64,000 bases of DNA from a virus, in IMG/VR virus record IMGVR_UViG_3300037840_000216, positions 1-64,000 of that record, one strand, 5' to 3'. The position numbers and the translations under genes are program-made. Below the pieces are notes generated by a model. The model did not search any database, was not told where the DNA came from, and worked only from the letters and a program-made list of their open reading frames with translations. This document shows positions 2,732 through 16,852 of the stretch, piece after piece (position 1 is the stretch's first letter; every line of letters begins with the position of its first letter).

Positions 2732-2903
2732 TTACTTCCTCGTGATCGCATGACAGCGTCCGCAGATATCGAAACGAGCGTCATAGGAGTACCAACGATG
2801 TCCAAACAATCGGCAAATGAGCTTGTACATTTGGTAGAATCGACTTCCATGATGTCTCTACACATTATGGATAAGAAGTCGCGCCCGGAAAAGTATCGAA
2901 CAA

Positions 2904-2972
2904 TCGCAACGAGTGGAGTCGAACCACCATCTAGCCGATATGAGCGGCTTTGCCATCCGTAGGCTCGCTGCG
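2904..2972 (-). tRNA. tRNA-Met/Ile2 (CAT), compact D-arm
   Basis: CGCAGCG/CGTTGCG acceptor, AGCCG-CTCATAT-CGGCT, GGTGG-TTCGACT-CCACT. Confidence 0.7.
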
Positions 2973-3117
2973 TGGCTTTCGCGTACCGCTTGCACGGGAT
3001 AACCGCTACTCGTGTAATGCAAACATCAAGTCGTTCCCTGATCCGGGGTGCGACGACTTGCAAGGATGCTGCAAGTTAGGTTCTACCTGCTCTCTTGTGA
3101 AGAGTGTAGCTACCTGA

Positions 3118-3188
3118 AGCGAATAGTCGGAATCGAACCGACATCAGAACCTTGGAAGAGTCCTGTCATACCATTAGACCATACTCGC
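3118..3188 (-). tRNA. tRNA-Gly (TCC)
   Basis: Canonical cloverleaf, loop CTTCCAA. Confidence 0.9.
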
Positions 3189-3195
3189 AAAATTA

Positions 3196-3678
3196 CTACC
3201 GATTACGTCTAGACCAACGAGGCGGCAGTCTGAGCCGACGCCCGTAGGGCTCGGTGTACTGATACAGCCATTCGGCTGTCTGCCGCGTGGTCCCCTCAAG
3301 CGTTTGCTGAACCCGAGGGTTCTCCTTGTACAGCTTGAAGGTTTCGAATGTCACCTGCGTATGAAGATCGTCACGATCGACTACTGCGACGCCTAGCGCC
3401 GTCATCGACAGCGGGCGAATCTCTGTCCGACCCTCGTCAATAATGAGCTTGGTCTTGAATCCTCGCTCCTCGATGTATTTCTGGATCGTAATCAGATGAA
3501 CTTCGTCCTCTGCAAGCATTACAAGCTTGCAGTAGTGCAAACCTATCCTCCATTGCTCGACCGCCTTTGGATCGCTAATTAGATAAGCCTCTACCGCTGC
3601 ATGAGCAACCTGCGCAGACGCCTTTCCCGTACTCATACCCAAAGAACGATTCAAGAACAAATACATTGCAGGTCTCAT
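3196..3678 (-). CDS. pth2: Peptidyl-tRNA hydrolase type 2
   Basis: MSTGKASAQVAHAA, KLV, IIDEGRTEI..TALG signature motifs. Confidence 0.9.
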   Translation of the reverse strand: MRPAMYLFLNRSLGMSTGKASAQVAHAAVEAYLISDPKAVEQWRIGLHYCKLVMLAEDEVHLITIQKYIEERGFKTKLIIDEGRTEIRPLSMTALGVAVVDRDDLHTQVTFETFKLYKENPRVQQTLEGTTRQTAEWLYQYTEPYGRRLRLPPRWSRRNR

Positions 3679-3808
3679 AAACCTATCATTCCTATCTCTT
3701 CATGGCAGGCCATATCGCCTTCAGTATAACATAGTGCGCCGGCCCGGTTTGACCCAGACCCGCGCAAGGTAGCTCCAAATACAGGGCGCTACACCCAAGT
3801 TGGAGCTA

Positions 3809-3882
3809 AGCCTGCTCAGAGAATCGAACTCTGTCTAGTCTGGGTTACAAATCCAGTGCAGCACCATTTCTGCATAGCAGGC
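3809..3882 (-). tRNA. tRNA-Thr (TGT)
   Basis: Cloverleaf, loop TTTGTAA, G1-C72/C2-G71. Confidence 0.85.
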
Positions 3883-3887
3883 ACATT

Positions 3888-4149
3888 TTCAATTGCCCGT
3901 AAGCCGGGTTCTGTTTTAGCCGATCATCCATCTCAGGCTATACGCCTGGTCCCCACTTTACTAGGGACTGCCCTCTACCTGGACCGGCCGCGAGGGTCGA
4001 TCGCGCTTGAGGTTACACTCCGTCTCCGCAATGAGGTTCAGATGCCTTAGCTCCCTCCGTTGCATCAATATCTATGAGCATGTCGCCATGCCCGGAGTGG
4101 CCGGACTTTCCTCGTTGGGTTCGGCCAACGCGATCAGCCAGCAATTGAA
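3888..4149 (-). ncRNA. rnpB: RNase P RNA (minimal, ~262 nt)
   Basis: P1 TTCAATTGC/GCAATTGAA, P2 GCTGATC/GATCGGC, CR-I GAGGAAAGTCCGG, CR-IV GAGATGGATG, CR-V ACAGAACCCGGCTTA. Confidence 0.92.
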
Positions 4150-4150
4150 G

Positions 4151-4222
4151 AGCGGGATAGGGTAATCGAAACCCTGTCTGCTGATTGGCAACCAGCCGTA
4201 ATAGCCGTTATACTAATCCCGC
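4151..4222 (-). tRNA. tRNA-Gly (GCC)
   Basis: Cloverleaf, loop TTGCCAA. Confidence 0.9.
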
Positions 4223-4226
4223 AAAG

Positions 4227-4296
4227 AGCCCCGTGAGGAAGTCGAATCCTCGCAAGCAAGCTTCGAAGGCTCGCCGCCAAATCCGTTGGACAGGGC
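4227..4296 (-). tRNA. tRNA-Arg (TCG), non-canonical compact fold
   Basis: 7-bp acceptor, CCAA-CGGAT-TTGG D-arm, 6-bp anticodon stem, loop CTTCGAA. Confidence 0.75.
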
Positions 4297-4387
4297 AAAA
4301 CGAAAGCGGAGTTGATTAGAGCGTTCGGCCCGAACATTCTCTCCACGGCAGTCGGGCCACGCGATGTCGCTACCATATTTCGTTTCG

Positions 4388-4474
4388 TTGCGTTCTGTGG
4401 ATCGCGGCCACATCTCCCCGCCAAAATGCAGGGGCTCTATTCGGTTGCACCCAAGCATTTGAGCTAAGAACGCA
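4388..4474 (-). ncRNA. tRNA-like RNA with expanded D-loop and non-canonical T-loop
   Basis: TGCGTTCT/AGAACGCA stem, TAGCTC..GAGC D stem, T-arm GTGG-CCGCGAT-CCAC. Confidence 0.5.
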
Positions 4475-4475
4475 G

Positions 4476-4548
4476 TGGATCGCCTGGGACTCGAACCCAG
4501 ATCGTTCGGCTTAAGAGGCCGACATCTATCCAGTTGAATTAACGATCC
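4476..4548 (-). tRNA. tRNA-Lys (CTT)
   Basis: Cloverleaf, loop CTCTTAA. Confidence 0.9.
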
Positions 4549-4656
4549 ATAGTTTGTAGAGACTTCCTATCCATCACACTCTACCGTACACGGGCGTCAC
4601 CCCGCTCCCTAACGACAACACCTCACCTGGTACCACCAGGCGATCGTTTGTCTTAG

Positions 4657-4729
4657 TCTCCAATGTGGGACTCGAACCCACGACCTCTCGGTTCGCAACC
4701 GAGCGCTCTATCCGCTGAGCTAAAAGGAG
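4657..4729 (-). tRNA. tRNA-Arg (GCG)
   Basis: CTCGG-TTGCGAA-CCGAG; two T-T mismatches in acceptor stem. Confidence 0.75.
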
Positions 4730-4784
4730 TTGAAGAGTGACTATTCATCGCGGCCGCTCACCGCTGTTTCTGGCCGGAACCAGA

Positions 4785-5390
4785 TCATCTTGAAAACTTG
4801 CCTTCTTGCCAATCGTTCAAGAGCGTATACTCATACGAACTTGGATCACCACCAAGAACCAAGTCAAAAAGAACTGGGCGTACTTCTTTCAAGCTTTCGA
4901 TCAGGTGGTCTGCAATATTACACTCCGCATCTGTGAGATACGGAGCAATCGATTTATCGTCCTGGCCATCTCGGAGATGCAGCGTCCTGTGCCAGCCGGT
5001 ACAGGCCGGGATCGTGCAGTAGGACCTGGGAGCATAATTGATGTAATCTGGAAGCTCCAGCATCAACCATCTCGGCACGAAGTGGTGCCGCGTGATAGCA
5101 CCCTCACAGTCTGCCGAGTCCTCGTGGTAGCGACAGGCCAACGGACGCTGCGTGCTGAGAGCGCGAGCCTTCTTCTGCTCGATGATCTCATGAGGGATCA
5201 GCCCACTGTTATGGTTGAGCCGGTAGAGGACGGCGCGGGTGGAGAGGCGTTCATCGAGAAGATCATCGATATCCGCATCCTCCATTTCTGCGAGGACTTC
5301 TAGCTGCTCAACCGTTGCTTCTGAGTCGTAGGCATCAAACCAAAAGACCTCGCCAGTGAGGGGCTGGGTCCAATCTCGTGCTCGCGACAT
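4785..5390 (-). CDS. HNH-like endonuclease domain protein
   Basis: C..C..TRHHFVPR..CTIPACTGWHRTLH; start taken at MSRARDW (5390). Confidence 0.55.
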   Translation of the reverse strand: MSRARDWTQPLTGEVFWFDAYDSEATVEQLEVLAEMEDADIDDLLDERLSTRAVLYRLNHNSGLIPHEIIEQKKARALSTQRPLACRYHEDSADCEGAITRHHFVPRWLMLELPDYINYAPRSYCTIPACTGWHRTLHLRDGQDDKSIAPYLTDAECNIADHLIESLKEVRPVLFDLVLGGDPSSYEYTLLNDWQEGKFSR

Positions 5391-5574
5391 ACAAATAGTA
5401 TACACTACTTTGAGGTAGCCCGTGTGGGATTCGAACGAGTTAGAGAAGCTCGTATCGATGGTAACGTCCATCTCTCTTAACCTCGAAATGACGATACGTG
5501 TCATCGACATCTCTCGTAAGAATCAGGCAACCACCATCTCCGTAGACTTCTCTAACTCGTCAAATCTGACGAAG

Positions 5575-5646
5575 TAGCCCGATGGGTAATCGAAACCCAA
5601 TCTCCTGCATGAGGGGCAGGTATCCTAGCCGTTAGACGACCGGGCC
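5575..5646 (-). tRNA. tRNA-Glu (CTC)
   Basis: Cloverleaf, loop CCCTCAT. Confidence 0.85.
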
Positions 5647-5729
5647 ATATACGCCGAAAGCTCTCCACTCCTGGGCTTACCCTTAATGTTAGTCGCGAGG
5701 CAGGATTCGAACCTGCGCTCTTCGGCTAG

Positions 5730-5805
5730 TACTCCCGCCAGGAATCGAACCTGGGTGTACCGACTACCCTTTCTACTGGATATAAGCCAGAGGGGATACG
5801 GGAGC
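5730..5805 (-). tRNA. tRNA-Ile (TAT)-like with rearranged topology
   Basis: GCTCCCG/CGGGAGT acceptor, CTGG-CTTATAT-CCAG, canonical T-arm, no D-arm at the usual position. Confidence 0.6.
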
Positions 5806-5941
5806 ATGGTCCCTCCGAAGAGGGACGGACTCTACATGGTAGAGCCAACTGCTTGACAGCTTGTGCTGAGCAGTTTAGGAGTGTGTTCGGTGAACGTCTT
5901 ACCACCAAAGGTTGATTCTCGGCTGGCACTACTTGAGTAGG

Positions 5942-6229
5942 TTATTTCCAGTGAGCGTTTGATTCCAGTGAGCGTCTGAATGGTTTCTGGTTCCATTCTT
6001 CCCAGTACCACGGATACACATACGGTCTTGGTGGGGGCACCGGGTGGGGGCATGGATAGGGCTGAGGGACCGTGATCGGTCGTTTTGCGAACTCTGCCTT
6101 CAGTAGGCGGATACAGTCGTCCGTCGTCGGCTCCTTGCCGTGGTCACTCCAGGAGAGTCCACAGACGGAGCAAATCGTCGTAACGGCGACTGGCTCAGGC
6201 GTATTTACGGCTTTCTTGCGTGCGGCCAT
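5942..6229 (-). CDS. Hypothetical protein (CxxC, Pro-rich)
   Basis: 95-aa ORF overlapping the end of the upstream HTH gene. Confidence 0.55.
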   Translation of the reverse strand: MAARKKAVNTPEPVAVTTICSVCGLSWSDHGKEPTTDDCIRLLKAEFAKRPITVPQPYPCPHPVPPPRPYVYPWYWEEWNQKPFRRSLESNAHWK

Positions 6230-6464
6230 GATTGTCTACAGAGAGGCCCGAAGGCATTTCACCGCGATTGACACGTTTTTCAGTCATACCGCCCCAAACA
6301 TGCCCGCGTGCAGAATCGAGTGTTTTACCCGCTAACGTAGTAGACATATTGAGCATCTGACCTATCTGCGGAACCGTGTTGCCCTCGAAGTACAACTTGA
6401 AGGCATCGTATTCCGTCGCGTTGAGACAGTACACAGTTTCTATGTCTTGCCTCCCCATTTTCAT
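6195..6464 (-). CDS. HTH DNA-binding protein (LuxR/sigma-region-4-like)
   Basis: AAGGAGG RBS; LNATEYDAFKLYFEGNTVPQIGQMLNMS pattern. Confidence 0.65.
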   Translation of the reverse strand: MKMGRQDIETVYCLNATEYDAFKLYFEGNTVPQIGQMLNMSTTLAGKTLDSARGHVWGGMTEKRVNRGEMPSGLSVDNHGRTQESRKYA

Positions 6465-6498
6465 CCTCCTTTAGGATGTTGTTGGTTTGGTGATGCAG

Positions 6499-6571
6499 GG
6501 TGACCGACCGGATTCGAACCGGCATGGCGAGGTTCACAACCTCGAATCCTAACCGTTGGATGACGGCCACC
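6499..6571 (-). tRNA. tRNA-His (GTG)
   Basis: Cloverleaf with G-1, loop TTGTGAA. Confidence 0.9.
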
Positions 6572-6723
6572 ATGTTGCCCTGACGCCCTGACGGACGCCG
6601 AAATGCGGGCCACACCGACGAAACCCTACACAGCTAGCCCTTACTTGTCCGCCCGAGAGCGTAGTACAGTGGTGGGTTCACAGCCTGGCTGGACAGGCTC
6701 CAGCGTCTAGCCGCGTAGGGCGA

Positions 6724-6794
6724 CTGGGGATCAGGGATTCGAACCCCGATTGAGAGCTTCAAAGGCTCCGGTCTTGCCATTAGACGAATCCCCA
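6724..6794 (-). tRNA. tRNA-Gln (TTG)
   Basis: Cloverleaf, loop CTTTGAA. Confidence 0.9.
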
Positions 6795-6899
6795 ATGTTG
6801 ATGACCTTGCTCCCTCTAAGTGCGAGAACTCGGTCCTTCCCGTGACCCCGTGGCCTACGGGCAGGAAGGGGCGACGACGCCTTGGTCATCAAAGGCTAG

Positions 6900-6972
6900 C
6901 TGCGGGACAGGGCTTCGAACCCCGATCCCCGGCTTCAGAGGCCGGTCACTTGCCAATTAGTAAGATCCCGCA
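6900..6972 (-). tRNA. tRNA-Gln (CTG)
   Basis: Cloverleaf, loop CTCTGAA. Confidence 0.88.
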
Positions 6973-7019
6973 AAGGGTGCCACTTATCCGAGTGGCTTTA
7001 CTACTGTTGCTTTATAGCA

Positions 7020-7091
7020 TAGCGGACCCAAGAATTGAACTTGGCTCTCCTGGTTATGGGCCAGGAATGGTCACCAGACCACTTGACCGCG
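7020..7091 (-). tRNA. tRNA-Met (CAT), initiator-like
   Basis: Loop CCCATAA, unpaired C1:72. Confidence 0.8.
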
Positions 7092-7094
7092 CCG

Positions 7095-7433
7095 TTATTT
7101 GCGACTGTACGTGCGAATCGCATGACAATTCGCACAAACTACTTCACACTTCTTGATCTCTGCTTCGACTGTCTTGAGCCCCAGGCTTCGCCTGATCCCA
7201 TCAGCCACATTGAATGACTTTTGACCACGTACATGGTCAAACTGGAGAACAACCCAATTATCATTTCCACAGTCCGCACAAGAATGTGCTTCCTTGTATG
7301 CACGAACATGATTCCGCAAACGTTCTCGATTGGCGTCTGTATATACACGAGCCCGAGCCTTTACGGCGTCGCTATTTTTGCCATAGTGCTTGCGACCAGA
7401 TGCAGCCTTCTGTTCCTTTGTCTGTGCCATCAT
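7095..7433 (-). CDS. HNH endonuclease
   Basis: CADCG..LQFDHV..K..N..EIKKCEVVCANCH. Confidence 0.85.
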   Translation of the reverse strand: MMAQTKEQKAASGRKHYGKNSDAVKARARVYTDANRERLRNHVRAYKEAHSCADCGNDNWVVLQFDHVRGQKSFNVADGIRRSLGLKTVEAEIKKCEVVCANCHAIRTYSRK

Positions 7434-7463
7434 CCATTATTGTAACGGATAACCACGTTTTGA

Positions 7464-7502
7464 GGTTATGGGCCAACCGAGCTACCAATGCTCCACTCCG
7501 CG
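7464..7502 (-). pseudogene. 5' half of a tRNA-Met (CAT)
   Basis: CGCGGAG-TGGAGCATTGGTAGCTC-GGTTGGCCCATAACC, then no T-arm or 3' acceptor strand. Confidence 0.7.
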
Positions 7503-7642
7503 TCGTTATAAAGAGTACGTATGATATGGCAGTTAGCACAAACAACATCACACTTTGCAATACCACTTGACCGCACGGTGGCGCATCACTTCTGATACGT
7601 TATGGCCGAAAACGGTCTTTATGCATCATTTCTTATGCAGAG

Positions 7643-7725
7643 TACTCCCCCTCGGATTCGAACCGAGATGCCCTTTCGGGCGGCAGTTCTTGAAACTGCT
7701 ATGTCTACCATTCCATCAGGGAAGC
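7643..7725 (-). tRNA. tRNA-Leu (CAA)
   Basis: Type II cloverleaf. Confidence 0.9.
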
Positions 7726-7730
7726 ATGTT

Positions 7731-7764
7731 TATGATAATGCCTCATACACGCGAGGCAAATTTT
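7731..7764 (-). promoter_or_regulatory. Sigma-A-like promoter (TTGCCT-N16-TATCAT); second copy at 16295-16329
   Basis: 21-nt identical repeat placed just upstream of two tRNA-Leu genes. Confidence 0.55.
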
Positions 7765-7785
7765 TCCGCGACGGTACTTTCGTCA

Positions 7786-7858
7786 TAGGAATGCGGGGAG
7801 TCGAACCCCGATTACCTCCGTATCAGAGAGGCGTAATTGACCGTTATACTACACTCCA
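7786..7858 (-). tRNA. tRNA-Ile (GAT)
   Basis: Loop CTGATAC; 1:72 mismatch. Confidence 0.8.
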
Positions 7859-7859
7859 G

Positions 7860-7932
7860 TGGAACCAGGAGGAGTCGAACCCCCGTACTCCGGGCTTCAA
7901 CCGGATGCTCTGACCGACTGAGCTATAGTTCC
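7860..7932 (-). tRNA. tRNA-Phe (GAA)
   Basis: Canonical cloverleaf. Confidence 0.92.
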
Positions 7933-8106
7933 TTAGGTCCCTACGAGGAGAATATCAATCTCGTCCCGCAACTTAGGTAGCGAAGCTTCCCAAATACAGT
8001 CCAAGCATTTGTCTGAGCCGCGAAGGACACGATTTATACAACCCTCTTCGTTGCAGAGTCCGTGATAGTGTTTCATGAACTCAGGAATATCATCATCAAT
8101 GTACAT
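7933..8106 (-). CDS. Small putative zinc-finger protein (57 aa)
   Basis: MYIDDDIPEF..CNEEGC..KCLDC; below ORF-track cutoff. Confidence 0.4.
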   Translation of the reverse strand: MYIDDDIPEFMKHYHGLCNEEGCINRVLRGSDKCLDCIWEASLPKLRDEIDILLVGT

Positions 8107-8141
8107 CGCCTATTAGGCGACGGCGATAACGAATTTTCCAG

Positions 8142-8225
8142 CGGAAGGTGAAGGAGTCGAACCATCAGGACAAAGCCCTGGCCTAGTTTTCAAGACTAGT
8201 TGCGTCCCACGACGCGCCACCTTCC
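8142..8225 (-). tRNA. tRNA-Ser (TGA)
   Basis: Type II cloverleaf, G73. Confidence 0.88.
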
Positions 8226-8282
8226 AAAGCAGAGGCCCCGCCCGAGAGCCCTATTCGGGCCGGGGGCGGCTACCCCTTTGAG

Positions 8283-8354
8283 ACGCTAGTGCCGGAATCG
8301 AACCGGCCAAGAAACGCTTTGCAGGCGCACACATTACCACTCTGTCAACTAGCG
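8283..8354 (-). tRNA. tRNA-Cys (GCA)
   Basis: Loop CTGCAAA, U73. Confidence 0.85.
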
Positions 8355-8357
8355 AAG

Positions 8358-8429
8358 CTCTGGTGATAGGACTCGAACCTATAACCGTGACCTTAACAGG
8401 GTCCCGCGCTGCCATTGCGCCACACCAGA
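8358..8429 (-). tRNA. tRNA-Asn (GTT)
   Basis: Loop CTGTTAA. Confidence 0.88.
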
Positions 8430-8488
8430 ATAAAAACTCACGAGGTCCTTCGGGATTTCTGATACACTTTGGGGTTCCCCGTGAGTAG

Positions 8489-8574
8489 CGGAAAGAAAGG
8501 GAGTCGAACCCTTAGTGGACTGTTTACCCACGCCTCTTTAGCAAAGAGGTTGCGTCTCCAATTGCCGCCTTTCC
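8489..8574 (-). tRNA. tRNA-Ser (GCT)
   Basis: Type II cloverleaf, short D-arm. Confidence 0.82.
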
Positions 8575-8577
8575 AAA

Positions 8578-8650
8578 AGCCTTCGACGGGATTCGAGCCC
8601 GTAATCTCCAGTTTAGGAAACTGGCGTGATATCCTTTTCACTACGAAGGC
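8578..8650 (-). tRNA. tRNA-Arg (CCT)
   Basis: Loop TTCCTAA. Confidence 0.88.
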
Positions 8651-8662
8651 GCATCATTGTTA

Positions 8663-9106
8663 CTAACCTGACAATCCCAAACGTTTTCTCTCGACTCGAC
8701 AAGACTTACAATATGCACGGGGACCCTTATTTCCACTTGGCATTATCTTCAAACTAAAAGAATCCAATGGAAGTTCTTCTTTACAATGAGCACACCACCA
8801 CATACTCGGTTTAAGATCGTGTAGAGGGGGCTTACCTGGTGAAGAATGGGGTCGATTACACCGGCGATGAGAAAAAGCCAAATTATATTTATCCCAAAAT
8901 GCTTCAGCCCCATGGGTCTCCCATGGAACCTTATGCTCAATGCTTAGCTCGTCTACTGTATCAATAACTTCATTACACACAAAACATATATTGCGATTAG
9001 TCTCGCAGACGAGATCAAACAGAAGTCGTTGGCGCAACCTATGACAGGCCGTACTATAACTCATTCCTAGAATTTCATTCTTCTTTTCGTTACTTCGTGT
9101 AGCCAT
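8663..9106 (-). CDS. HNH endonuclease
   Basis: CFVC..LSIEHKVPW..NLAFSHRRCN plus C-terminal CxxC..CxxC. Confidence 0.85.
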   Translation of the reverse strand: MATRSNEKKNEILGMSYSTACHRLRQRLLFDLVCETNRNICFVCNEVIDTVDELSIEHKVPWETHGAEAFWDKYNLAFSHRRCNRPHSSPGKPPLHDLKPSMWWCAHCKEELPLDSFSLKIMPSGNKGPRAYCKSCRVERKRLGLSG

Positions 9107-9168
9107 CCATTTATTGGGGATTATATACTTGGCTAACCCAAGCTAACCACGCCTTCATGGGACGCCCC

Positions 9169-9366
9169 TTATTCATGGTGTTCTTCTTCGCCACGGTGGG
9201 TGAGTTCCTGGAGCCCTTCGTGAAACTGCTTGTCTTCAATGCTGCGCGTGTGTTCTTCGCACGCGACGCTAAGAGGATGGTCGCACGGGTTTTCGCCGCC
9301 TCCCCCGCATCCAGCTACGCCGCCAAGAAGGACGAGCGCCATAGCGAGTGTCGTTAGTCGCCTCAT
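9169..9366 (-). CDS. Small putative lipoprotein (IS passenger)
   Basis: MRRLTTLAMALVLLGGVAG|C lipobox. Confidence 0.6.
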   Translation of the reverse strand: MRRLTTLAMALVLLGGVAGCGGGGENPCDHPLSVACEEHTRSIEDKQFHEGLQELTHRGEEEHHE

Positions 9367-9449
9367 GGCTCGCTTATCGGCTCTGTCAAGCCCCGACTTG
9401 AGTTCGAGTCTATGGACCGTGCATGGCCTTGGACGCGATGGTGGCGCGC

Positions 9450-9716
9450 ATGGCCCCACGCACAGAGCCGCAGATTGCCCTTGGGCAAGCTATCCGCCAG
9501 ACCAGAACCGCTCGCGGGCTATCGCAGGAGGAGGTCGCCCATGCCGCTGATCTGCACCCCACCTGGATCAGCCACATCGAGGCCGGGAAGAACCCCGCTT
9601 GGGGCACCATCCGCCGTATCGCATCTGCTCTCGGCGTCGAGGTGTCCGAGCTAGCCCGACTGGCCGAGAAGATCGAAGCTCGGCCTGAGACTTGCGATCA
9701 TCGTGAAGCTGGCTAA
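9450..9716 (+). CDS. XRE-family HTH transcriptional regulator (IS passenger)
   Basis: GLSQEEVAHAADLHPTWISHIEAGKNP. Confidence 0.85.
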   Translation: MAPRTEPQIALGQAIRQTRTARGLSQEEVAHAADLHPTWISHIEAGKNPAWGTIRRIASALGVEVSELARLAEKIEARPETCDHREAG

Positions 9717-9987
9717 AGCTCTCGGAATCCCGCCAGCCAAGTTGCTGGACGGGATTCCATAGATCGGGGTCTCTACACTCGAAGGCGTCTCAAGCCAACA
9801 CGGAAGGAGGGAACCCTTTGCAAACCCTCTTGAGGACGCCGGAAAACCCCGGAGTCGGGGATAACCACGCCCATCCGGCTCCCGGCCGTCAGTCGGGCAG
9901 GACTTAGGGGAACTTGGGAAACGACGTGGCAAGTCGGCGGCAAGAGCAAGTCAAGTAGCAAGCCAGTAGGACCGTCGCGTGGTCTGC

Positions 9988-10170
9988 TCACCCGGCGGCA
10001 CCGCTGGCCTGGGGTGGACACCCTCCTAAGTCCTTTTCGGAATCCTTCGGCGGCTTCTTGGGCGCTGGAGGGATCGTCTTGGGATCAACCTCCAGGGCTG
10101 CCTTGATGGCATCCTCGAAGGGCAGCGGGATCGACAGCTTTTTGTCGGAGGGCTTGGGTTGATCGACCAT
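9988..10170 (-). CDS. Small hypothetical protein downstream of transposase
   Basis: GGAGG RBS; LSIPLPFEDAIKAALEVDP. Confidence 0.5.
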   Translation of the reverse strand: MVDQPKPSDKKLSIPLPFEDAIKAALEVDPKTIPPAPKKPPKDSEKDLGGCPPQASGAAG

Positions 10171-10411
10171 CGTGCCCTCCATTCTATCGTTCGTTGAGCG
10201 CCGGCTTAGATGCCCCGGTTAGTCCGACTTATGTTTCACTCTTTTGCTATTCACCAATACATAGTGACGGCCAAACAAGTGAATGTGGTAAGATGTGCTT
10301 GCACACGGTCAGCCGTGGCAACCTCCGCTTGTAAGAGAGGCACCACGACTGACCACCCGAGATTGATTCCAGTTGGACGGCCGTCGTATGGTCGCCGCTG
10401 GATCAATTTCG

Positions 10412-11347
10412 TCAAGTCGATTCGGAGCAGGAACTATAGCGCAGACGCTTTCCCTCTGCCTTCTCCAGGGCAAGCATCGTGCGAGCACCGTCAGTGTTGT
10501 AACGGAAGTCAAACTCGGAGAGATAACGGTGCAGGTGCTCAGCACTGACGTGGTGATAAACGCCGTTGATGCCACGCTTCAAGTTCGCGAAGTATCCCTC
10601 GGCTGAGTTCGTGTACACATCGCCTCGGGCATACTCTTTCTCACCGTGATCGACAATCTCGTGGCTTGCAAAGTCTTGATCTAGCCCCTGATATGAGCGA
10701 TGCTGGTCAGTCATCACGCGGGACTCACGTTCGACGTTCTCACGTACGGCTCCCTTGAGAGTCCTGCCAGTCACATCGGGGACAACCATTGAGCGAACGT
10801 TGCCCTTGCGTTCTACCAGCGAAATGACGGGGGTCTTGTCTATCCCTCCCGTGCCAGTGATTTTACGCTCACGGTCACCTTTGTGCATGTTCTTCGCCTT
10901 GCCACCCACGAATGTCTCATCGACCTCCACGATGCCGCTTAGACGGTCCTGAAAAGGACTCTGATCCATTGCGTGTCTGATGCGATGGAACATGAACCAA
11001 GCGGTCTTGTACGTGACTCCGATCGAGCGATGAAGCTGGTGAGCGCTCATGCCCTTCTTAGACGAGCAGAGTAGATAGAAGGCCAGCAGCCACTTGTTGA
11101 GCGGGATATGGCTCGATTCAAAGATCGTGCCGACCGTGACCGTGAACTGCTTACGGCAGGTCGCACACTTCCAGAGGCGACGTTTGGCTTTGCCTTTGAG
11201 CCTGTACGGCGTTCGATCATGCTCGCCGCAGTGGGGGCATACAGGACCATCCGGCCAGCGAATCCCCTCCAGAAGCTCGGCGGCTGCTTCTGGATCGGCG
11301 AAGTACGGCGCGAGATTAGCCAGGTTGAGAATCCGTTCTCCATCCAT
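10412..11347 (-). CDS. IS1595-family DDE transposase
   Basis: Zn ribbon CPHC..CATC, VEVDET, VMTD, TNSAEG, YLSEFDFRYN. Confidence 0.95.
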   Translation of the reverse strand: MDGERILNLANLAPYFADPEAAAELLEGIRWPDGPVCPHCGEHDRTPYRLKGKAKRRLWKCATCRKQFTVTVGTIFESSHIPLNKWLLAFYLLCSSKKGMSAHQLHRSIGVTYKTAWFMFHRIRHAMDQSPFQDRLSGIVEVDETFVGGKAKNMHKGDRERKITGTGGIDKTPVISLVERKGNVRSMVVPDVTGRTLKGAVRENVERESRVMTDQHRSYQGLDQDFASHEIVDHGEKEYARGDVYTNSAEGYFANLKRGINGVYHHVSAEHLHRYLSEFDFRYNTDGARTMLALEKAEGKRLRYSSCSEST

Positions 11348-11463
11348 GGTTCAGATTCTATTGATGGCGTCGGACGGAACTTTTGGGCGGAGCTATGGCG
11401 CAAAACTCGACTGTCCTACATCGCCCTACTGCCTGAGTCCTGCGCAAGCTACAATAGGCACTT

Positions 11464-11536
11464 GCACGGGTAGCTCAGTCAGTAGAGCGGAGGCTTGATA
11501 CCCCTCGCGTCGCGGGTGCAAATCCCGCCCCGTCTT
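11464..11536 (+). tRNA. tRNA-Ile (GAT)-like, degenerate, inside IS
   Basis: TAGCTCAGTCAGTAGAGC D-arm, loop TTGATAC, T-loop TGCAAAT, acceptor mismatches. Confidence 0.6.
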
Positions 11537-11639
11537 CAGGCCCCGGCTGCTTTGAGCGCCGGGGTCTTCTCGTTTCGCAGCCAGCTATGACTAACTGGGT
11601 TTGCGAAGTACATAATCCCCCAAAACAGGCAGGTGAAAT

Positions 11640-11748
11640 GCCCCCGTAGTTTAGTGGCAACGGACAACGCCCTCCCCAAGAGTGTCGGTGTCCTAAGAAC
11701 GTCGGTCTTTCAAGCCGAAGACGCGGGTTCGAATCTCCGTCGGGGGTA
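11640..11748 (+). tRNA. tRNA-Glu (TTC) with large D-loop insertion, inside IS
   Basis: GCCCCCG/CGGGGGT acceptor, TCGGT-CTTTCAA-GCCGA, GGTTCGAAT. Confidence 0.7.
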
Positions 11749-11845
11749 CTTTTGCTGTCCATAGGACATATCCTACCAAACTACTCTGGGTTTGTCAAGT
11801 GCCTAATCCCCCATTTATTCTATCAAGAAATGGACCTTATTGAAG

Positions 11846-12227
11846 TGGACCATGCGTGAGTCGAACACGCGTCTTGTTGTGATTGTCAATCTAGCTATCT
11901 AGCATCTTTGAAACAGGCTTGACCCGTCTCCACCACTCGGTTTACGTCCAAGAACGTACTGCTTTCGCGGGGTGACAGATATTACTCTATCTTGCTACCA
12001 TCATGCCTTTCTGTTCACAGGTAAACATGAGACCCGGCTCTAGCGACTAAGCTAGAGCGAGATGTGCCTCGCGTGCCGTAAAGCCACCGGAAACGGCAGA
12101 ACCGTCCTGGAAGCTCGCCGGGATAGCGAGGGTGTCATCATTGCCAGTTATGGCTTTTGAGATTTAGGTGTCTCGAACCGATGCACTAGAAGGACTCTCG
12201 GGCAACAATCGAATACCCATATGGCCC
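11846..12227 (-). ncRNA. ssrA: tmRNA
   Basis: GGGCCAT/ATGGTCC-A acceptor with G3.U70, T-arm GCGTG-TTCGACT-CACGC, ATAACT|GGC resume context, tag ending LALA*. Confidence 0.92.
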
Positions 12228-12355
12228 ATATTGCACTGCTCAAGGCGAGGGTCGCCCATTACTTGCTTGTCTTGGATCACACGACCCTCGCCAAGAAACA
12301 AGATACTGGATCACCACCTTTCTTATAGCAGTTGAACGTAGGATTTCTCCTACAA

Positions 12356-12427
12356 TGGACGATGGAGGATTCGAACCTCCAACCACTGCGTTGTCGCCGC
12401 AGCGCTCTCCCATTGAGCTAATCGTCC
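12356..12427 (-). tRNA. tRNA-Val (GAC)
   Basis: Cloverleaf, loop GCGACAA. Confidence 0.85.
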
Positions 12428-12492
12428 ATGCCGCCGTTCACCCGAAGGCTACTAAGCAAACATTCCCTTTCACCCGAAGGCTACTTTGGAAG

Positions 12493-12567
12493 TGCATCGT
12501 GAGGGATTCGAACCCCCGACGCCTGGCTTGTAACGCCAGCGCTCTGGCCATGCTGAGCTAACGATGC
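12493..12567 (-). tRNA. tRNA-Val (TAC)
   Basis: Cloverleaf, loop GTTACAA. Confidence 0.9.
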
Positions 12568-12646
12568 AAGTTGAGGGCGAGCTTATCGCCTCCTTCGTTT
12601 GGCAACCCCGTTGATTCCAGGACTCCAACTACCCTCGATATATCAG

Positions 12647-12718
12647 CGATCTCACGGGGAATCGAACCCCGACTTGCGCTTAGACAGAGCGCCGTGATAA
12701 CCGTTTCACTATAAGACC
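12647..12718 (-). tRNA. tRNA-Asp (GTC)
   Basis: Cloverleaf, G73. Confidence 0.9.
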
Positions 12719-12722
12719 AAAG

Positions 12723-12801
12723 CGGGAGTACAAGGAGTCGAACCTTGCTGTTACTTTCCAAGGGTTTTGGAGGCCCTTCGCTACTCCGGTAGCACACTCC
12801 C
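12723..12801 (-). tRNA. tRNA-Trp (CCA), short D-arm and long variable loop
   Basis: Loop CTCCAAA, canonical T-arm. Confidence 0.7.
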
Positions 12802-12993
12802 AGGCAAAACTAGAGCTTTCCTCCGACGAAGGTCACGGAGCAACTCTACCCTGAACTTTGAGAACCACTGCGGATCATCTAGGTCATGCGTCTCCATCAT
12901 CGCATGATTTGCGGCGGCGAATACCTGCGGACCTAGCTCTTCTTGCGTGAGGTCGCGGTTCAAGTACCTCAACGGTCGTAGTTCTGAGGCCAT
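12781..12993 (-). CDS. Hypothetical protein
   Basis: 70 aa, TG-n-TATAGT directly upstream; 3' end overlaps tRNA-Trp. Confidence 0.4.
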   Translation of the reverse strand: MASELRPLRYLNRDLTQEELGPQVFAAANHAMMETHDLDDPQWFSKFRVELLRDLRRRKALVLPGSVLPE

Positions 12994-13071
12994 GCGAACT
13001 ACTATATCAGATGGTGGCGATATTTCTGACCTTGGCTCTTACTATCGGGACGGTCAAGCGAGTACCATCTA

Positions 13072-13144
13072 AGCCAACAGGAGGAGTTGAACCTCCTTCT
13101 CCGGGTTACGAATCCGGTGCGTCACCACGCAACGCTTTGCTGGC
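13072..13144 (-). tRNA. tRNA-Thr (CGT)
   Basis: Loop TTCGTAA. Confidence 0.85.
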
Positions 13145-13539
13145 ACAAAAGACAAGCGCCGGACTTTCAACTTAGCTTCCCCAGATGCGAGTGCCGCTCG
13201 CTGAGGAGTGAGCCGTAAAACATCCACCAAACGTGTATAGGCATTTCTTGATAACGCCTGGCTTACACGAGTCTTTCTAGGAGGCTTCCGCGAAACTCGC
13301 ATTTTGGCTCTGTAGAGCCAAGTTTCCGAGCCGCGTTCAGGCCGATCCCTCAAGATCAGGGATCGACTACCCCTGAGAGTCGATCAACTGCGAAACGACC
13401 GGCGAAACCATAGATTTTGGCTTGCCTAAGCCAAAAATAAGGCTCGCCCAATCTTGATCGTGGTACTTCAAGGCCGCTCAGGGCGAACAGAAATAAGAGA
13501 TGAGCCGGGCGCAGCTTGCGACTGGCCCGGCTCGCTGAC

Positions 13540-13615
13540 ACCTCTGTAGCTCAACTGTGGCCAGAGCCCCCGGCATTCAACCGGGGAGATGTGGGTCCGA
13601 ATCCCACCAGAGGCA
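13540..13615 (+). tRNA. tRNA-like gene (TTC in anticodon position, A33), probably degenerate
   Basis: CCTCTG/CAGAGG, TAGCTCAA..AGAGC, loop CATTCAA, T-loop TCCGAAT. Confidence 0.55.
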
Positions 13616-13620
13616 TCAAG

Positions 13621-13905
13621 ATGGTGTCGCCAATTGGCAAAGGACTTCGATGGAACCCCGAATGGGGCTATTGGCTATGCCCCAAAGTTCCGTCCGATGG
13701 CCCGTGTAAACTTTGTCGTTCTGATCAAAGTGACCCCCGCGAGATTGGCGTCTCCGGGGGTCTGGCCCAAGGAGATGTTGGCTCCGTGGACTCACCCAAG
13801 GTAGCATCGCGCTCGGCTGCGGCCGAGCTTGGAAGACTGCTCGAATCGCCCGAGATCACAAAGCTGATCGCAGAGCTTGAGGCGACTCGCTGGACCGGAA
13901 GCTAG
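13621..13905 (+). CDS. Hypothetical protein (Cys-containing)
   Basis: ATG just after the + strand tRNA-like gene, followed by a long hairpin. Confidence 0.4.
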   Translation: MVSPIGKGLRWNPEWGYWLCPKVPSDGPCKLCRSDQSDPREIGVSGGLAQGDVGSVDSPKVASRSAAAELGRLLESPEITKLIAELEATRWTGS

Positions 13906-14035
13906 AATCCTCAGAGGGAGGTCCCGCATCGGCTGGCCTCGCGGCCTCAGAGTCGGCGAGTTACCGGACGGGACCTTCCTCTGAGGACTTTCGCAGTTCG
14001 TTTCGCCGGACCCTCCTAGGAGGAGCAACCCTCCA

Positions 14036-14108
14036 AGCCTACAGGCAGAATCGAACTGCCGACCTCTTCCATACCAAGGAAGCGCTCTATCAACTGAGCT
14101 ATGCAGGC
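14036..14108 (-). tRNA. tRNA-Thr (GGT)
   Basis: Canonical cloverleaf. Confidence 0.92.
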
Positions 14109-14355
14109 ACGAAGATCCGGCGTCATACTCACTGTCGTCACAGTATAGAGCAGCGGACGACCCGGACCATACAACAAACCCGTCTATGACGGGGCGCTCC
14201 GCCCGCTACCCTCTACCGGGGGCCGACTGAGCAATTGGGTGGGAGAGCAGGCCACGAACCCTGCGTACACCGTGCGAATAGGCGACTTGGGTGGCCGACA
14301 GTTCCGACAGCCCATATGCCACCGTCATTCCTGTCGATCTCCAGCGATCTCCCAA

Positions 14356-14429
14356 TCAGGGTAGCGGGCTTCGATCCCGCGACCTCTTCGCTCCGAACGA
14401 AGCGCGCTACCAAGCTGCGCCATACCCTG
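14356..14429 (-). tRNA. tRNA-Pro (CGG)
   Basis: Cloverleaf, loop TTCGGAG. Confidence 0.88.
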
Positions 14430-14518
14430 TGGTGGGGCTTGCCATCCGGCAGCTAACCGGTGCTCCCCTCTCCATGACGTTGATGTGCCAGGAGTGTCTA
14501 GGATGTGAACCCTATAGT

Positions 14519-14600
14519 GCGCCATGCGGGAATCGAACCCGCAACCCTTATTGCTCCTCTCCCGAATGGGCGGCTAGCCTGGGTCTACCTATGAATGGCG
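14519..14600 (-). ncRNA. tRNA-like RNA without a recognisable anticodon arm
   Basis: CGCCAT/ATGGCG stem plus perfect T-arm GCGGG-TTCGATT-CCCGC. Confidence 0.45.
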
Positions 14601-14601
14601 A

Positions 14602-14696
14602 TGCGCCAGATGGGATTCGAACCCACATTCGCTTGTGTGAAAAACAAGTGCTGTGGCCGGTTTTTGACGCCGACTCTACCGTTCAGCTACTAGCGC
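14602..14696 (-). tRNA. tRNA-Glu (TTC) with D-loop hairpin insertion
   Basis: CTTGT-TTTTCAC-ACAAG, canonical T-arm, D-loop ~30 nt. Confidence 0.7.
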
Positions 14697-14834
14697 TTGT
14701 GTGCGATCCGATTACTCTCTGGCGAAGTCCAGGTATCGGTTCTCTGTGTCCAAGTTACCTTCGATCTCCCACAGAGCAATTTGGCTCGCCCCTCGCACGG
14801 AGCAGAAGTTCGGCGCTTGCAAACGCCTCACAAG

Positions 14835-14905
14835 TCGGGGATGCAGGAATCGAACCTGCGCTTGAAGTATCCAAGACTCCGGTGATACCATTTCACTAAT
14901 CCCCG
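14835..14905 (-). tRNA. tRNA-Pro (TGG)
   Basis: Canonical cloverleaf. Confidence 0.9.
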
Positions 14906-14965
14906 TGACGCGCCCACGAGCCGAAGCTGAGGGCGCATGCGGAGAGTTGCCTCTCCGGGTCCTAC

Positions 14966-15502
14966 TTATTCCGAGTAGGTAAACGTCGCACTCGCCGGGC
15001 TCGTCCCGTTTGGAGTGGTAACGGTCACATCTACCGATGTTCCGTTTGTGCCTGCCGGTGAATCGACAGTGACCTCTGTCTCTGAGACGACAACGACGTT
15101 CGTTGCCTCCGCTGAGCCGAAGGCGACTGCGGTTGCTCCGGTGAGGGCAGTTCCCCACACCGTGACCGCAGTTCCGCCAACAGCCGTGCCGCTGGTCGGG
15201 CTCACTGCGGTGACGGTCGGTGCGACCGGCGGAGTTACAGCGTTGTTGAGTGCCGTTGTGTTGGCCTCAACCTGCGTAGTGTTGGTCTGGACAGCCGTCG
15301 TTGCCGCGTCTACCGCAGCCTGATCGGCGTCACTCGTGATTGCTGCGACCGCTGCCTCAACGGCAGTCGTGTTGGCCGCTACTGCGGACTCGTTAGCGGC
15401 AACTGCCGCTGTTAGTGCTTCGGTGTTTGCCACTAGTTTCCTCTGCTCTCGTAGTAGGTGCTCCAAAACCTCTAGAAGAGGCTCGTGGTGTCTGTATTCC
15501 AA
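14966..15502 (-). CDS. Ala-rich coiled-coil protein with IPT/TIG domain
   Basis: AAGGAGG-N5-TTG start; PTVTAVSPTSG..GGTAVTV.GT..VAFG..FTY. Confidence 0.8.
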   Translation of the reverse strand: MEYRHHEPLLEVLEHLLREQRKLVANTEALTAAVAANESAVAANTTAVEAAVAAITSDADQAAVDAATTAVQTNTTQVEANTTALNNAVTPPVAPTVTAVSPTSGTAVGGTAVTVWGTALTGATAVAFGSAEATNVVVVSETEVTVDSPAGTNGTSVDVTVTTPNGTSPASATFTYSE

Positions 15503-15528
15503 TAGACCCTCCTTAATTGGATGGGTAG

Positions 15529-15601
15529 TGGACCGCGTGGGAATCGAACCCCTTCTCCGCATTGCAAGTGCAGTGTGTGACCCATCACAACCGCGCAGCC
15601 C
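15529..15601 (-). tRNA. tRNA-Ala (TGC), atypical D/T arms
   Basis: G3.U70, loop CTTGCAA. Confidence 0.75.
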
Positions 15602-15613
15602 ATTTACTTCAGA

Positions 15614-15687
15614 TGCCCCCAGTCGGGTATGATCCGACATCCCAAGGTTAAAAGCCAAGTGCGTTCTCCATTTACGCTCATAGGGGC
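15614..15687 (-). tRNA. tRNA-Lys (TTT), degenerate
   Basis: Loop CTTTTAA; T-loop ATCATAC; anticodon-stem mismatches. Confidence 0.55.
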
Positions 15688-15801
15688 AGGCTCCCCAGAG
15701 CAGAGCGCCAGCGCTTCAAAGCGGCGGGCTCCACGCTTGCGATTACTCTGGGGTACTACAACTGCTTGCTGATGTTTGTGATAGCGGAGTCATGTCCGCA
15801 G

Positions 15802-15884
15802 TGCCGTCCGAGAGAGTCGAACTCTCATGCTCTTACGAGCGGCCGGTTCTAAGCCGACTGCGTATACCATTCCACCAGGACGGC
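15802..15884 (-). tRNA. tRNA-Leu (TAG)
   Basis: Type II cloverleaf. Confidence 0.9.
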
Positions 15885-16016
15885 ATGTCCTCCTGCTCTC
15901 GATGCAAGGAGGGGTACTTTTTCTGTATTCATTCTTCGACATCGAGAGCGTGCCGTCCCACCAACTCCCTGGCGGGTGGGCTAGAGCTGCCATCGGTCTT
16001 ACACCCTAAAGTCTTA

Positions 16017-16100
16017 TGCGCAGGGAGGGACTCGAACCCTCACGCCCTTGCGGGCACACGGATCTGAACCGTGCACGTCTACCAATTCCGACACCAGCGC
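16017..16100 (-). tRNA. tRNA-Leu (CAG)
   Basis: Type II cloverleaf. Confidence 0.9.
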
Positions 16101-16202
16101 AAGTAGTAGGGTCAGTCGAGAGGCGCAGCTTGTGTGATGCCATCTGCTCACCCAATCGACTGTAGAGGAGAAAGCATCACCGATCTCCCCGATTCCCTAC
16201 AG

Positions 16203-16287
16203 TACGCTGAGCGGGACTCGAACCCGCACGAGCTTTCGCTCATAACCTCCTCAAGGTTACATGCCTACCAAATTACATCACCAGCGC
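16203..16287 (-). tRNA. tRNA-Leu (GAG)
   Basis: Type II cloverleaf. Confidence 0.9.
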
Positions 16288-16405
16288 AAGTGATTATGCT
16301 AAACCTCGCATACACGCGAGGCAAATTTTCCAAAGAGAGATGGCGGCAATGATTTATGACCTTTGCTCTTACTATCGGGACGGTCAGGTGAGAGCCATCT
16401 CTAAG

Positions 16406-16485
16406 TGCCAGCGGTAGGAATCGAACCTACTTGGGCTACGCGCGACCGCTTTACAGGCGGCTTACAGTCCATCTGTGTCACTGGC
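16406..16485 (-). tRNA. tRNA-Tyr (GTA), short D-loop
   Basis: Loop CTGTAAA, long variable region. Confidence 0.8.
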
Positions 16486-16783
16486 ATATTCTAGCATCCG
16501 GGCGCGAACCCGAGGTTCCTAACTCGCTGGACTGCCCGCCTATGTAATGGGCTTGTCCCCTTAGCGAGGGGTCATCACAGGACCGGAGCTTTATAGGCGA
16601 CTCCCAAACTTCTGGGCCGGTGCTGCTGCGGAATCGATCGGAATGGCTACCGTACCGCTGGCAATGCTATGTTTCGACAGTATAGCAAACCATCTGCCTC
16701 CTGTCTAGAGGGTCTGTTGGGGCTCGAACCCAACCTAATCGGCGACCTGTTCGCCAGCCCTTTCTTGATATAGGTTCTAAGTA

Positions 16784-16852
16784 TGCCCCTCGTGGGAGTT
16801 GAACCCACCCTCAAAGATTAGAAGTCTTCGGCCTAGTTCCGCTAGGAAGGGC
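16784..16852 (-). tRNA. tRNA-Arg (TCT), non-canonical compact fold
   Basis: CTAG-CGGAA-CTAG D-arm, 6-bp anticodon stem, 3-nt variable loop. Confidence 0.75.

Follow-up and report, generated by a model that had tools for sequence, protein, structure and literature searches.

A gene for RNase P RNA between phage tRNA genes

The window analysed in this work is a stretch of 64,000 nucleotides (nt) that forms the first 64 kb of the 84,467-base virus record IMGVR_UViG_3300037840_000216 of IMG/VR (CheckV completeness estimate, 53%). Between the genes for tRNA-Gly(GCC) and tRNA-Thr(UGU) its minus strand carries a 266-nt gene whose predicted product is RNase P's RNA subunit. When window positions 3600-4500 were searched with Infernal in the E-value mode of Rfam, the model of bacterial type A RNase P RNA (RF00010, RNaseP_bact_a) matched positions 3884-4149 over its entire length (model positions 1-367 of 367) with 64.8 bits and an E-value of 2.8e-19. 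RF00010 was the best cmscan match, weaker matches from the same clan having been dropped, and in a search of the whole record it matched at 3884-4149 of the minus strand and nowhere else. As 64.8 bits is less than the curated 100 bits, the gene is overlooked by a default Rfam scan: at gathering thresholds no RNase P was reported in the window, and all 27 matches were tRNAs. The E-value of 2.8e-19 nevertheless shows homology to RF00010.

An initial annotation, made from the window sequence, had placed a minimal RNase P ribozyme inside the tRNA array at 3888-4149. Both the identification as an RNase P RNA homologue and the location within a phage tRNA array were borne out. The span was right to within 4 nt; the match starts at 3884, however, and 3888 marks the last pair of helix P1.

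The minus strand of the gene folds with z = -3.06 (0 of 200 shuffles as good), as compared to z = -1.65 for the plus strand (12 of 200). All 12 nested helices of our own structure model, and P4, consist entirely of Watson-Crick or G-U pairs in the window. The elements of the RNA are listed below with window coordinates, RNA position i corresponding to window position 4150 - i; pairing percentages and compensatory counts refer to the covariation alignment described in the next section. CR stands for conserved region, bp for base pairs and MFE for minimum free energy.

3884-4149, minus strand: RNase P RNA gene, 266 nt
4140-4149, minus strand: P1 5' strand (RNA 1-10), pairs with 3888-3897; all 10 pairs are standard in the window and all 10 vary on both sides in the clade
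4132-4139 with 3918-3925, minus strand: P2 (RNA 11-18/225-232); 98.6% of cells paired, six of seven counted pairs compensatory
4113-4130, minus strand: P3 hairpin (RNA 20-25/32-37); 95% of cells paired, five of six pairs compensatory
4100-4113, minus strand: CR-I and P4 5' strand (P4 at 4101-4108, RNA 42-49) with a bulged U at 4105 (U45); identical to the Rfam consensus
4093-4099 with 4016-4022, minus strand: continuous P5/P7 helix, CACUCCG/CGGAGUG (RNA 51-57/128-134); 96.7% paired, four of six counted pairs compensatory
4023-4092, minus strand: reduced specificity domain, 70 nt (RNA 58-127), enclosed by P5/P7; 72 nt left unaligned by Infernal replace about 140 model positions
4077-4092, minus strand: hairpin with a GCGA (GNRA) loop (RNA 58-73), equivalent of P8 or P9; 77% paired, five of six pairs compensatory
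4027-4064, minus strand: conserved core of the specificity domain (composite helix, GGGAG, 2-bp stub, UGAACC)
4009-4015, minus strand: J5/15 (UAA) and P15 5' strand (4009-4012, RNA 138-141), aligned to model GCAAggcc
3989-4005, minus strand: P16/17-like hairpin (RNA 145-161); standard pairs in the window, relatives align poorly here and give no confirmation by covariation
3972-3979, minus strand: L15 GGU (3977-3979, RNA 171-173) and P15 3' strand (3972-3975, RNA 175-178), from the Rfam alignment and a regular expression
3949-3968, minus strand: P18-like hairpin with a GUAAAG loop (RNA 182-201), from the MFE fold and our own model
3934-3948, minus strand: second hairpin between P15 and CR-IV (RNA 202-216), from the MFE fold and our own model
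3926-3933, minus strand: CR-IV (J18/2, RNA 217-224), aligned to model AGAugAAUG; one weakly conserved position differs
3900-3914, minus strand: CR-V (RNA 236-250) and P4 3' strand (3901-3907, RNA 243-249); identical to the Rfam consensus
3888-3897, minus strand: P1 3' strand (RNA 253-262), followed by a 5-nt tail (3883-3887) into tRNA-Thr

The minus strand thus has all the catalytic-core signatures named in the initial annotation (P1-P4, CR-I, CR-IV, CR-V and a GGUA). In RF00010 the catalytic domain consists of the P1-P4 pseudoknot core together with CR-I, CR-IV and CR-V; in the window this domain was aligned with high posterior probability and carries consensus letters, and P15 with the GGU of L15 is likewise present. 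This GGU reads the 3' end of the tRNA. A pairing of GAGGG with another CCCUC suggested by the MFE fold was rejected in favour of P15 as given by the Rfam alignment, which is backed by covariation. Two hairpins between P15 and CR-IV were also seen, by eye, in relatives.

Covariation among homologues

Ten sequences of the phage clade to which the window belongs were aligned with MAFFT (loci in other phages are denoted by L numbers). L143 (identical to L142), L179 (496 nt) and the later found L122 and L124 were left out. RNAalifold predicted 46 pairs, 31 of them compensatory. In addition, a structure of our own was scored which comprises P1, P2, P3, the P4 pseudoknot, P5/7, the GNRA hairpin, the GNGG/CCNC helix and the stub. 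Changes on both sides were found at 35 of its 48 pairs. Standard pairs occupied 89.5% of 476 cells as compared to 66.3 +/- 1.5% after shuffling, a control that ignores the relatedness among the sequences and uses a structure derived in part from them; none of 500 shuffles reached the observed value. Sliding the 3' partners by 1-3 columns left only 28-40% paired. P4 was paired to 100% in the ten sequences, with three of seven pairs compensatory. According to a regular expression, 10 of 11 clade sequences form P15, as does the eleventh (L141) when judged by eye, and all 11 retain the GGU.

A miniature specificity domain

The initial annotation had described a specificity domain of about 70 nt, without obvious P13/P14, between CACTCCG and CGGAGTG. 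Its length is exactly 70 nt (4023-4092), and P13/P14 are absent. Where a canonical specificity domain has P7-P14 with CR-II/CR-III, the window retains only a single GNRA hairpin together with a short composite helix and a stub of 2 bp. The loop of the GNRA hairpin is GAAA, GCGA or GCUAA in the relatives. A single-stranded stretch lies between this hairpin and the composite helix, which consists of an outer part (4060-4064/4027-4031; RNA 86-90/119-123), which among the relatives was recognised by eye and in just three, and of GAGG/CCUC (4054-4057/4033-4036; RNA 93-96/114-117). Inside the composite helix follow GGGAG, the 2-bp stub with its UAAG loop (4044-4051) and UGAACC. Helices 7 and 8 of our own structure, which belong to this core, are 95% and 100% paired and show an A-U/C-G/U-A exchange at a variable position.

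The core GGNGGGAG...ACC is invariant in seven relatives (six distinct sequences) that had been found via their proteins, without the motif. The length of the insert between GGGAG and ACC ranges from 11 nt, in the window and in L141, to about 158 nt in L122; five relatives have 12-18 nt and three have 51-53 nt. Its flanks are fixed throughout the clade, and the stub of the window is the shortest form of the hairpin. In those RNase P RNAs from which P13/P14 are missing, P12 with CR-II/CR-III is a length-variable hairpin between short conserved strands inside a helix. Based on position, length variability and this general picture, we take the core to correspond to P10/P11/P12 and CR-II/CR-III, an assignment to which the Infernal alignment gives no support. 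The specificity domain of the longer relative L139 was likewise left unaligned by Infernal, and an Rfam search of L182 for a full-length alignment gave no match. Given that the core is invariant in seven relatives and that its helices covary, a retained function of the domain is indicated rather than simple loss. As judged from these comparisons, the small specificity domain is miniaturised rather than lost, and it is not a random stump.

Conservation in related phages

Relatives were fetched with the Pth2-like protein (14 loci) and the DNA polymerase (4 loci), and the resulting 17 records were searched with RF00010. Matches of 286-354 nt, all below the gathering threshold, were obtained in seven of the 17 records, among them four of the four that are at least 90% complete. 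A motif scan added the clade members L177-L180. The RNAs of the clade form a size series of 266-496 nt in which that of the window is the shortest (others 272-496 nt). Pth2 identity among the clade phages is only 47-75%.

The gene order tRNA-Gly(GCC), RNase P RNA, tRNA-Thr(UGU), tRNA-Gly(UCC), tRNA-Met is common to the window, L138, L139 and L141. In L122 and L124, where RF00010 found no match, the tRNA genes follow one another in the same order and leave a gap of 370-490 nt, in which a homologue was recognisable by eye. The homologue of L122 (17640-18120) contains about 158 nt inserted in the P12-like stub, the insert beginning with AUG; RF00010 was silent there at E <= 0.01.

In a second soil study, a DNA contig (X2) matched window positions 3703-4455 with 0 differences; as this contig comes from a separate study, the allele is not an assembly accident. 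A blastn search with the window RNA and two other phage RNase P RNAs against 50,697 GenBank phage records gave no match. This result indicates the absence of close relatives only, because short conserved blocks cannot reach significance. For the DNA polymerase, a comparison with cultured phages gave 1,419 matching records, every one of them less than 60% identical. The phage therefore has no close cultured relative, the best cultured matches (Gordonia and Mycobacterium phages) being about 30% identical.

Two further scans yielded candidates most of which were rejected. A scan of genome contigs with the clade motif returned at least 120 loci; the majority show no CR-V in the next 520 nt and represent chance matches in coding DNA, whereas in a few (L212, L223, L244) the distance is short. 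A scan of metagenomes with the stub motif returned one locus, a chance match in coding DNA with neither tRNA nor CR-I.

A variant P4 was observed in L140, L142-L144 and L180, with CR-I being GAGGAAGUUCGGGG and CR-V being ACAGAACCCCGGCUA; the helix is preserved by compensatory changes. The same variant was seen in RNase P RNAs of unrelated phages (L306, L309, L311); among these RNAs is one of nearly full size from a 300-kb contig. In three records (G004, G006 and G007) tRNA clusters lie near Pth2, some kilobases from the RNase P RNA.

Source contig, tRNA array and flanking genes

The source contig is a phage fragment from an uncultured soil phage. Eight of ten large open reading frames (ORFs) of the record matched PHROG phage families, including a DnaE-like DNA polymerase (E 4.4e-232), a baseplate wedge protein, virion structural proteins, a ribonucleotide reductase and helicases. 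ARAGORN predicted 35 tRNA genes across 2904-16852, 33 of them on the minus strand. Neighbouring tRNA genes are separated by gaps of 0-3 nt several times in the array, e.g. at 7858/7859, 8354/8357 and 8574/8578. The genes around the RNase P RNA are the following.

4150/4151-4222, minus strand: tRNA-Gly(GCC), abuts the ribozyme 5' end with a spacer of 0-1 nt
3809-3882, minus strand: tRNA-Thr(UGU), 1 nt past the Rfam match and 5 nt past P1; neighbour conserved in L138, L139 and L141
3196-3678, minus strand: peptidyl-tRNA hydrolase gene PTH2 (PF01981, 69.8 bits), used as syntenic marker for finding relatives

Promoter and terminator signals, for which positions 2800-5700 were scanned, were as numerous as in shuffled sequences.

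Three additional features of the array were recorded. (i) A transfer-messenger RNA (tmRNA) gene below threshold lies at 11843-12227 on the minus strand (RF00023, 34 bits with a gathering threshold of 47, E 1.7e-11, full model span). It was overlooked by both ARAGORN and the default Rfam scan; its position matches that of the tmRNA found by ARAGORN in the relatives L120-L122 (after tRNA-Val(GAC)), and a contig from an RNA library is exact over 11845-12319. (ii) A gene for an IS1595-family transposase (DDE_Tnp_IS1595, 153.5 bits; 10412-11347, minus strand) is inserted in the array between the tmRNA and tRNA-Arg(CCU), and the relatives have no gap at this position. (iii) An 80-nt element at 12722-12801 on the minus strand was called tRNA-Trp(CCA) by ARAGORN; its best Rfam score is that of tRNA-Sec (RF01852, 38.9 bits), which is below the gathering threshold of 47.

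Protein partner and substrates

The protein subunit RnpA (PF00825) was detected neither in the 84-kb record nor in five relatives, four of which are 99-100% complete, in a search that was positive in 10 of 14 reference genomes used as control. In agreement with the initial annotation, which had seen no rnpA in the window, the phage genome thus does not supply the RnpA gene of a holoenzyme as far as the record goes. This absence suggests that host RnpA would be used. With respect to substrates, 27 of the 35 tRNAs predicted by ARAGORN reach the Rfam tRNA threshold, so that most of them look ordinary. The relaxed specificity for non-canonical tRNAs that had been put forward in the initial annotation is speculation.

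Further RNase P RNAs in phage tRNA arrays

Core-motif scans of IMG/VR revealed other small RNase P RNAs among or beside phage tRNA genes. RF00010 matched 16 of 26 such viral records. The matches are mostly 209-302 nt long (15 of 16 within 209-356 nt, the sixteenth 496 nt), and three of the 16 records exceed the gathering threshold. The smaller matches of L168-L173 (IMG/VR records G033-G036, G040 and G041) span 209-243 nt among tRNA genes, with remnants of a specificity domain unlike that of the window clade. Motifs that we take to be CR-II/CR-III-like are found in L165-L167 and L173.

A further case is present in a cultured phage. In the genome of Stenotrophomonas phage DLP6 (KU682439.2; L302/L303), RF00010 matched positions 105774-106022 (249 nt, 54.7 bits, E 3.3e-17), which fall in a gap without GenBank annotation, 3 nt upstream of tRNA-Arg(CCG). 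Neither "RNase P" nor "ribozyme" occurs in the main text of the DLP6 genome paper (PMC5349666), as judged by a term search. No description of a phage-encoded RNase P RNA was found in the full-text literature, subscription journals being outside its coverage. In megaphages, nothing but tRNAs and a tmRNA is reported to have been detected (PMC8172020). The window gene shares the hallmarks of a mini RNase P RNA of phage tRNA arrays: it lies on a viral contig and in a tRNA array, is homologous to RF00010 and is well below 350 nt in length.

Proposed function and alternative explanations

By the comparative evidence given above, the RNA is real and conserved in a phage clade, of type A ancestry and equipped with a clade-specific miniature specificity domain. 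We consider it probable, at roughly 0.7, that the gene encodes a functional catalytic subunit of RNase P, phage-encoded, of type A ancestry and with a miniaturised specificity domain. A role in the 5' maturation of tRNAs is likely. The ribozyme would be transcribed within a polycistronic tRNA transcript. Its 5' end would be defined when the upstream tRNA undergoes 3' processing, and its 3' end when RNase P cleaves the downstream tRNA at the latter's 5' end. As its 3' end would be an RNase P cleavage site, the ribozyme would help in its own release. Once folded and bound to host RnpA, it would cleave the 5' leaders of the 35 tightly packed pre-tRNAs of the phage and in this way provide extra RNase P capacity during infection. 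The mini specificity domain, i.e. the GNRA hairpin and the GGNGGGAG/UGAACC core around the P12-like variable hairpin, may aid folding or substrate docking.

Several observations weigh against this interpretation. The score of 64.8 bits does not reach the RF00010 gathering threshold of 100 bits, and the covariation alignment is small (10 sequences). No canonical CR-II/CR-III, P13 or P14 was recognisable in the specificity domain of the window; as the domain is moreover left unaligned, recognition of the tRNA elbow may be impaired. The invariance of GGNGGGAG in L177-L180 holds by construction, these loci having been found with a motif that includes it. At L124 (17713-18085), extra bases are present in CR-I and CR-V and the GGNGGGAG core is absent; this copy may be decaying or strongly diverged, and in view of its alterations some lineages may be able to dispense with the gene or may be losing it. 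No tRNA is located within 1.5 kb of the RNase P RNA in L140, L142-L144 and L180. Finally, the soil metatranscriptome X3 covers positions 3502-4503 only at low depth and with a loose end at 3933. The signal ending there looks like the conserved RNase P segment of other organisms. X3 is the only RNA library that contains the phage; its contigs match other parts of the array exactly, none of its material attests the RNase P RNA, and carry-over of DNA is possible.

The RNA could instead act as a sponge or regulator which, with its protein-binding catalytic domain retained, titrates or redirects host RnpA, or binds pre-tRNAs, while being a poor or inactive catalyst. The specificity domain is far from canonical, a clade without RnpA must compete for that of its host, and a viral precedent is provided by the RNase P-like RNA of camelpox virus, which is reported to be inactive in vitro (PMC3001073). 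For such a role, however, a protein-binding surface alone would suffice, whereas CR-I and CR-V match the consensus perfectly, CR-IV does so but for one weakly conserved position, and none of the 11 sequences has lost the GGU, a pattern expected for catalysis and binding of the tRNA 3' end; the location between tRNAs also fits processing. We therefore regard a sponge as unlikely. Quite unlikely, too, is an active ribozyme that dispenses with host RnpA and works alone or together with an unrecognised phage protein. The absence of PF00825 from the record and five relatives would agree with it, as would the five of ten ORFs near the array that lack a Pfam match and the changed P4/CR-I sequence in some clade members. 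Against it stand the lack of an identified candidate partner and the conservation of the type A catalytic domain, to which bacterial RnpA is known to bind.

The small size of the window RNA (266 nt versus 272-496 nt in the rest of the clade) and the degraded appearance of L124 in CR-I and CR-V might instead be taken as signs that an rnpB captured from a host has become non-functional and is undergoing deletion. Such a remnant would hardly show 35 of 48 compensatory pairs and an invariant catalytic core across phages whose Pth2 proteins are 47-75% identical, nor would it be expected in all four near-complete relatives, which makes this explanation very improbable. That host DNA or an assembly chimera was included in a viral bin is hardly credible and is already contradicted by the data. 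Some IMG/VR contigs with full-size RNase P RNAs at their ends do resemble host flanks, a CR-I-to-CR-V distance of 273 recurring mostly near locus ends. The window gene, however, lies 3.9 kb into an 84-kb phage record with phage tRNAs and Pth2 on both sides, and the same junctions are found in related phages and in the contig of the second study.

Compared to the preferred reading of a miniaturised type A ribozyme, a bolder version would see in the RNA a distinct structural class, in which a type A catalytic domain is combined with a new, compact module for substrate docking (the invariant GGNGGGAG/UGAACC core and the length-variable hairpin within it). The RNA would be released from a tRNA-Gly/RNase P RNA/tRNA-Thr precursor in part through its own catalysis, and would then join host RnpA in a hybrid holoenzyme tuned to a dense array of CCA-less tRNAs. 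We regard this version as tentative and rather doubtful; if it were true, maturation of phage tRNAs would be independent of the supply of host RNase P RNA.

To our knowledge, RNase P RNA has been regarded as a housekeeping ribozyme of cells and organelles only. A viral copy that is conserved would add a catalytic RNA to the translation-related genes of large phages (tRNAs, tmRNA, Pth2). With 266-496 nt around a fixed core in one clade, such phages would offer natural minimisation experiments on the specificity domain. They also disclose a blind spot of annotation, in that genes of this kind score below the Rfam threshold and the DLP6 copy is not annotated in GenBank. If active with heterologous RnpA, the compact ribozymes could possibly be useful for the processing of tRNA arrays in vitro.

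Comparison with known RNase P RNAs and viral ribozymes

The window RNA shares with bacterial type A RNA (rnpB, RF00010) helices P1-P5, P15 with the GGU of L15, a P18-like hairpin and CR-I, CR-IV and CR-V that match the consensus. It differs in size (266 nt versus 367 model positions), in its 70-nt specificity domain with a 2-bp P12-like stub, and in being phage-encoded, located between tRNA genes and devoid of an rnpA partner gene. A natural RNase P RNA with a drastically reduced specificity domain is also found in archaea: the type T RNAs of Thermoproteaceae (Pyrobaculum) are reported to lack nearly the whole domain and to be still catalytically active (PMC7191817). Type T RNAs, however, belong to archaeal cells and are the only RNase P RNA that these organisms have, whereas the catalytic domain of the window RNA is of bacterial type A, with L15/GGU, and its small specificity domain is conserved. 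The combination that defines type T, an archaeal catalytic domain with a nearly absent specificity domain, is not what we found, the best member of the clan being RF00010.

In some genomes from the Candidate Phyla Radiation (CPR), RNase P RNA is described as lacking P12, P13, P14 and P18 and as detectable only below Rfam thresholds (PMC8172020). The RNase P RNAs of CPR bacteria and Mycoplasma fermentans resemble the window RNA in being reduced. In contrast to these sole, essential copies, the window RNA would be an accessory viral copy beside the host enzyme.

Among viral RNAs, the small RNase P RNAs of other phage tRNA arrays are comparable in being small and mostly located beside or among tRNA genes; the window clade differs from them by its own core GGNGGGAG...ACC and its size series of 266-496 nt. 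The RNA of camelpox virus and other orthopoxviruses is likewise virus-encoded and has an RNase P-like secondary structure. It is reported not to cleave pre-tRNA in vitro, and a possible decoy function was discussed (PMC3001073). This RNA belongs to a eukaryotic virus without tRNA arrays, whereas the phage RNA has catalytic regions identical to the consensus. Theta (hepatitis delta virus-like) ribozymes are reported to be phage-encoded and associated with viral tRNA genes (PMC10879173). They are small self-cleaving ribozymes of another fold and differ in this respect from a trans-acting RNase P, the activity that we propose for the RNA of the window.

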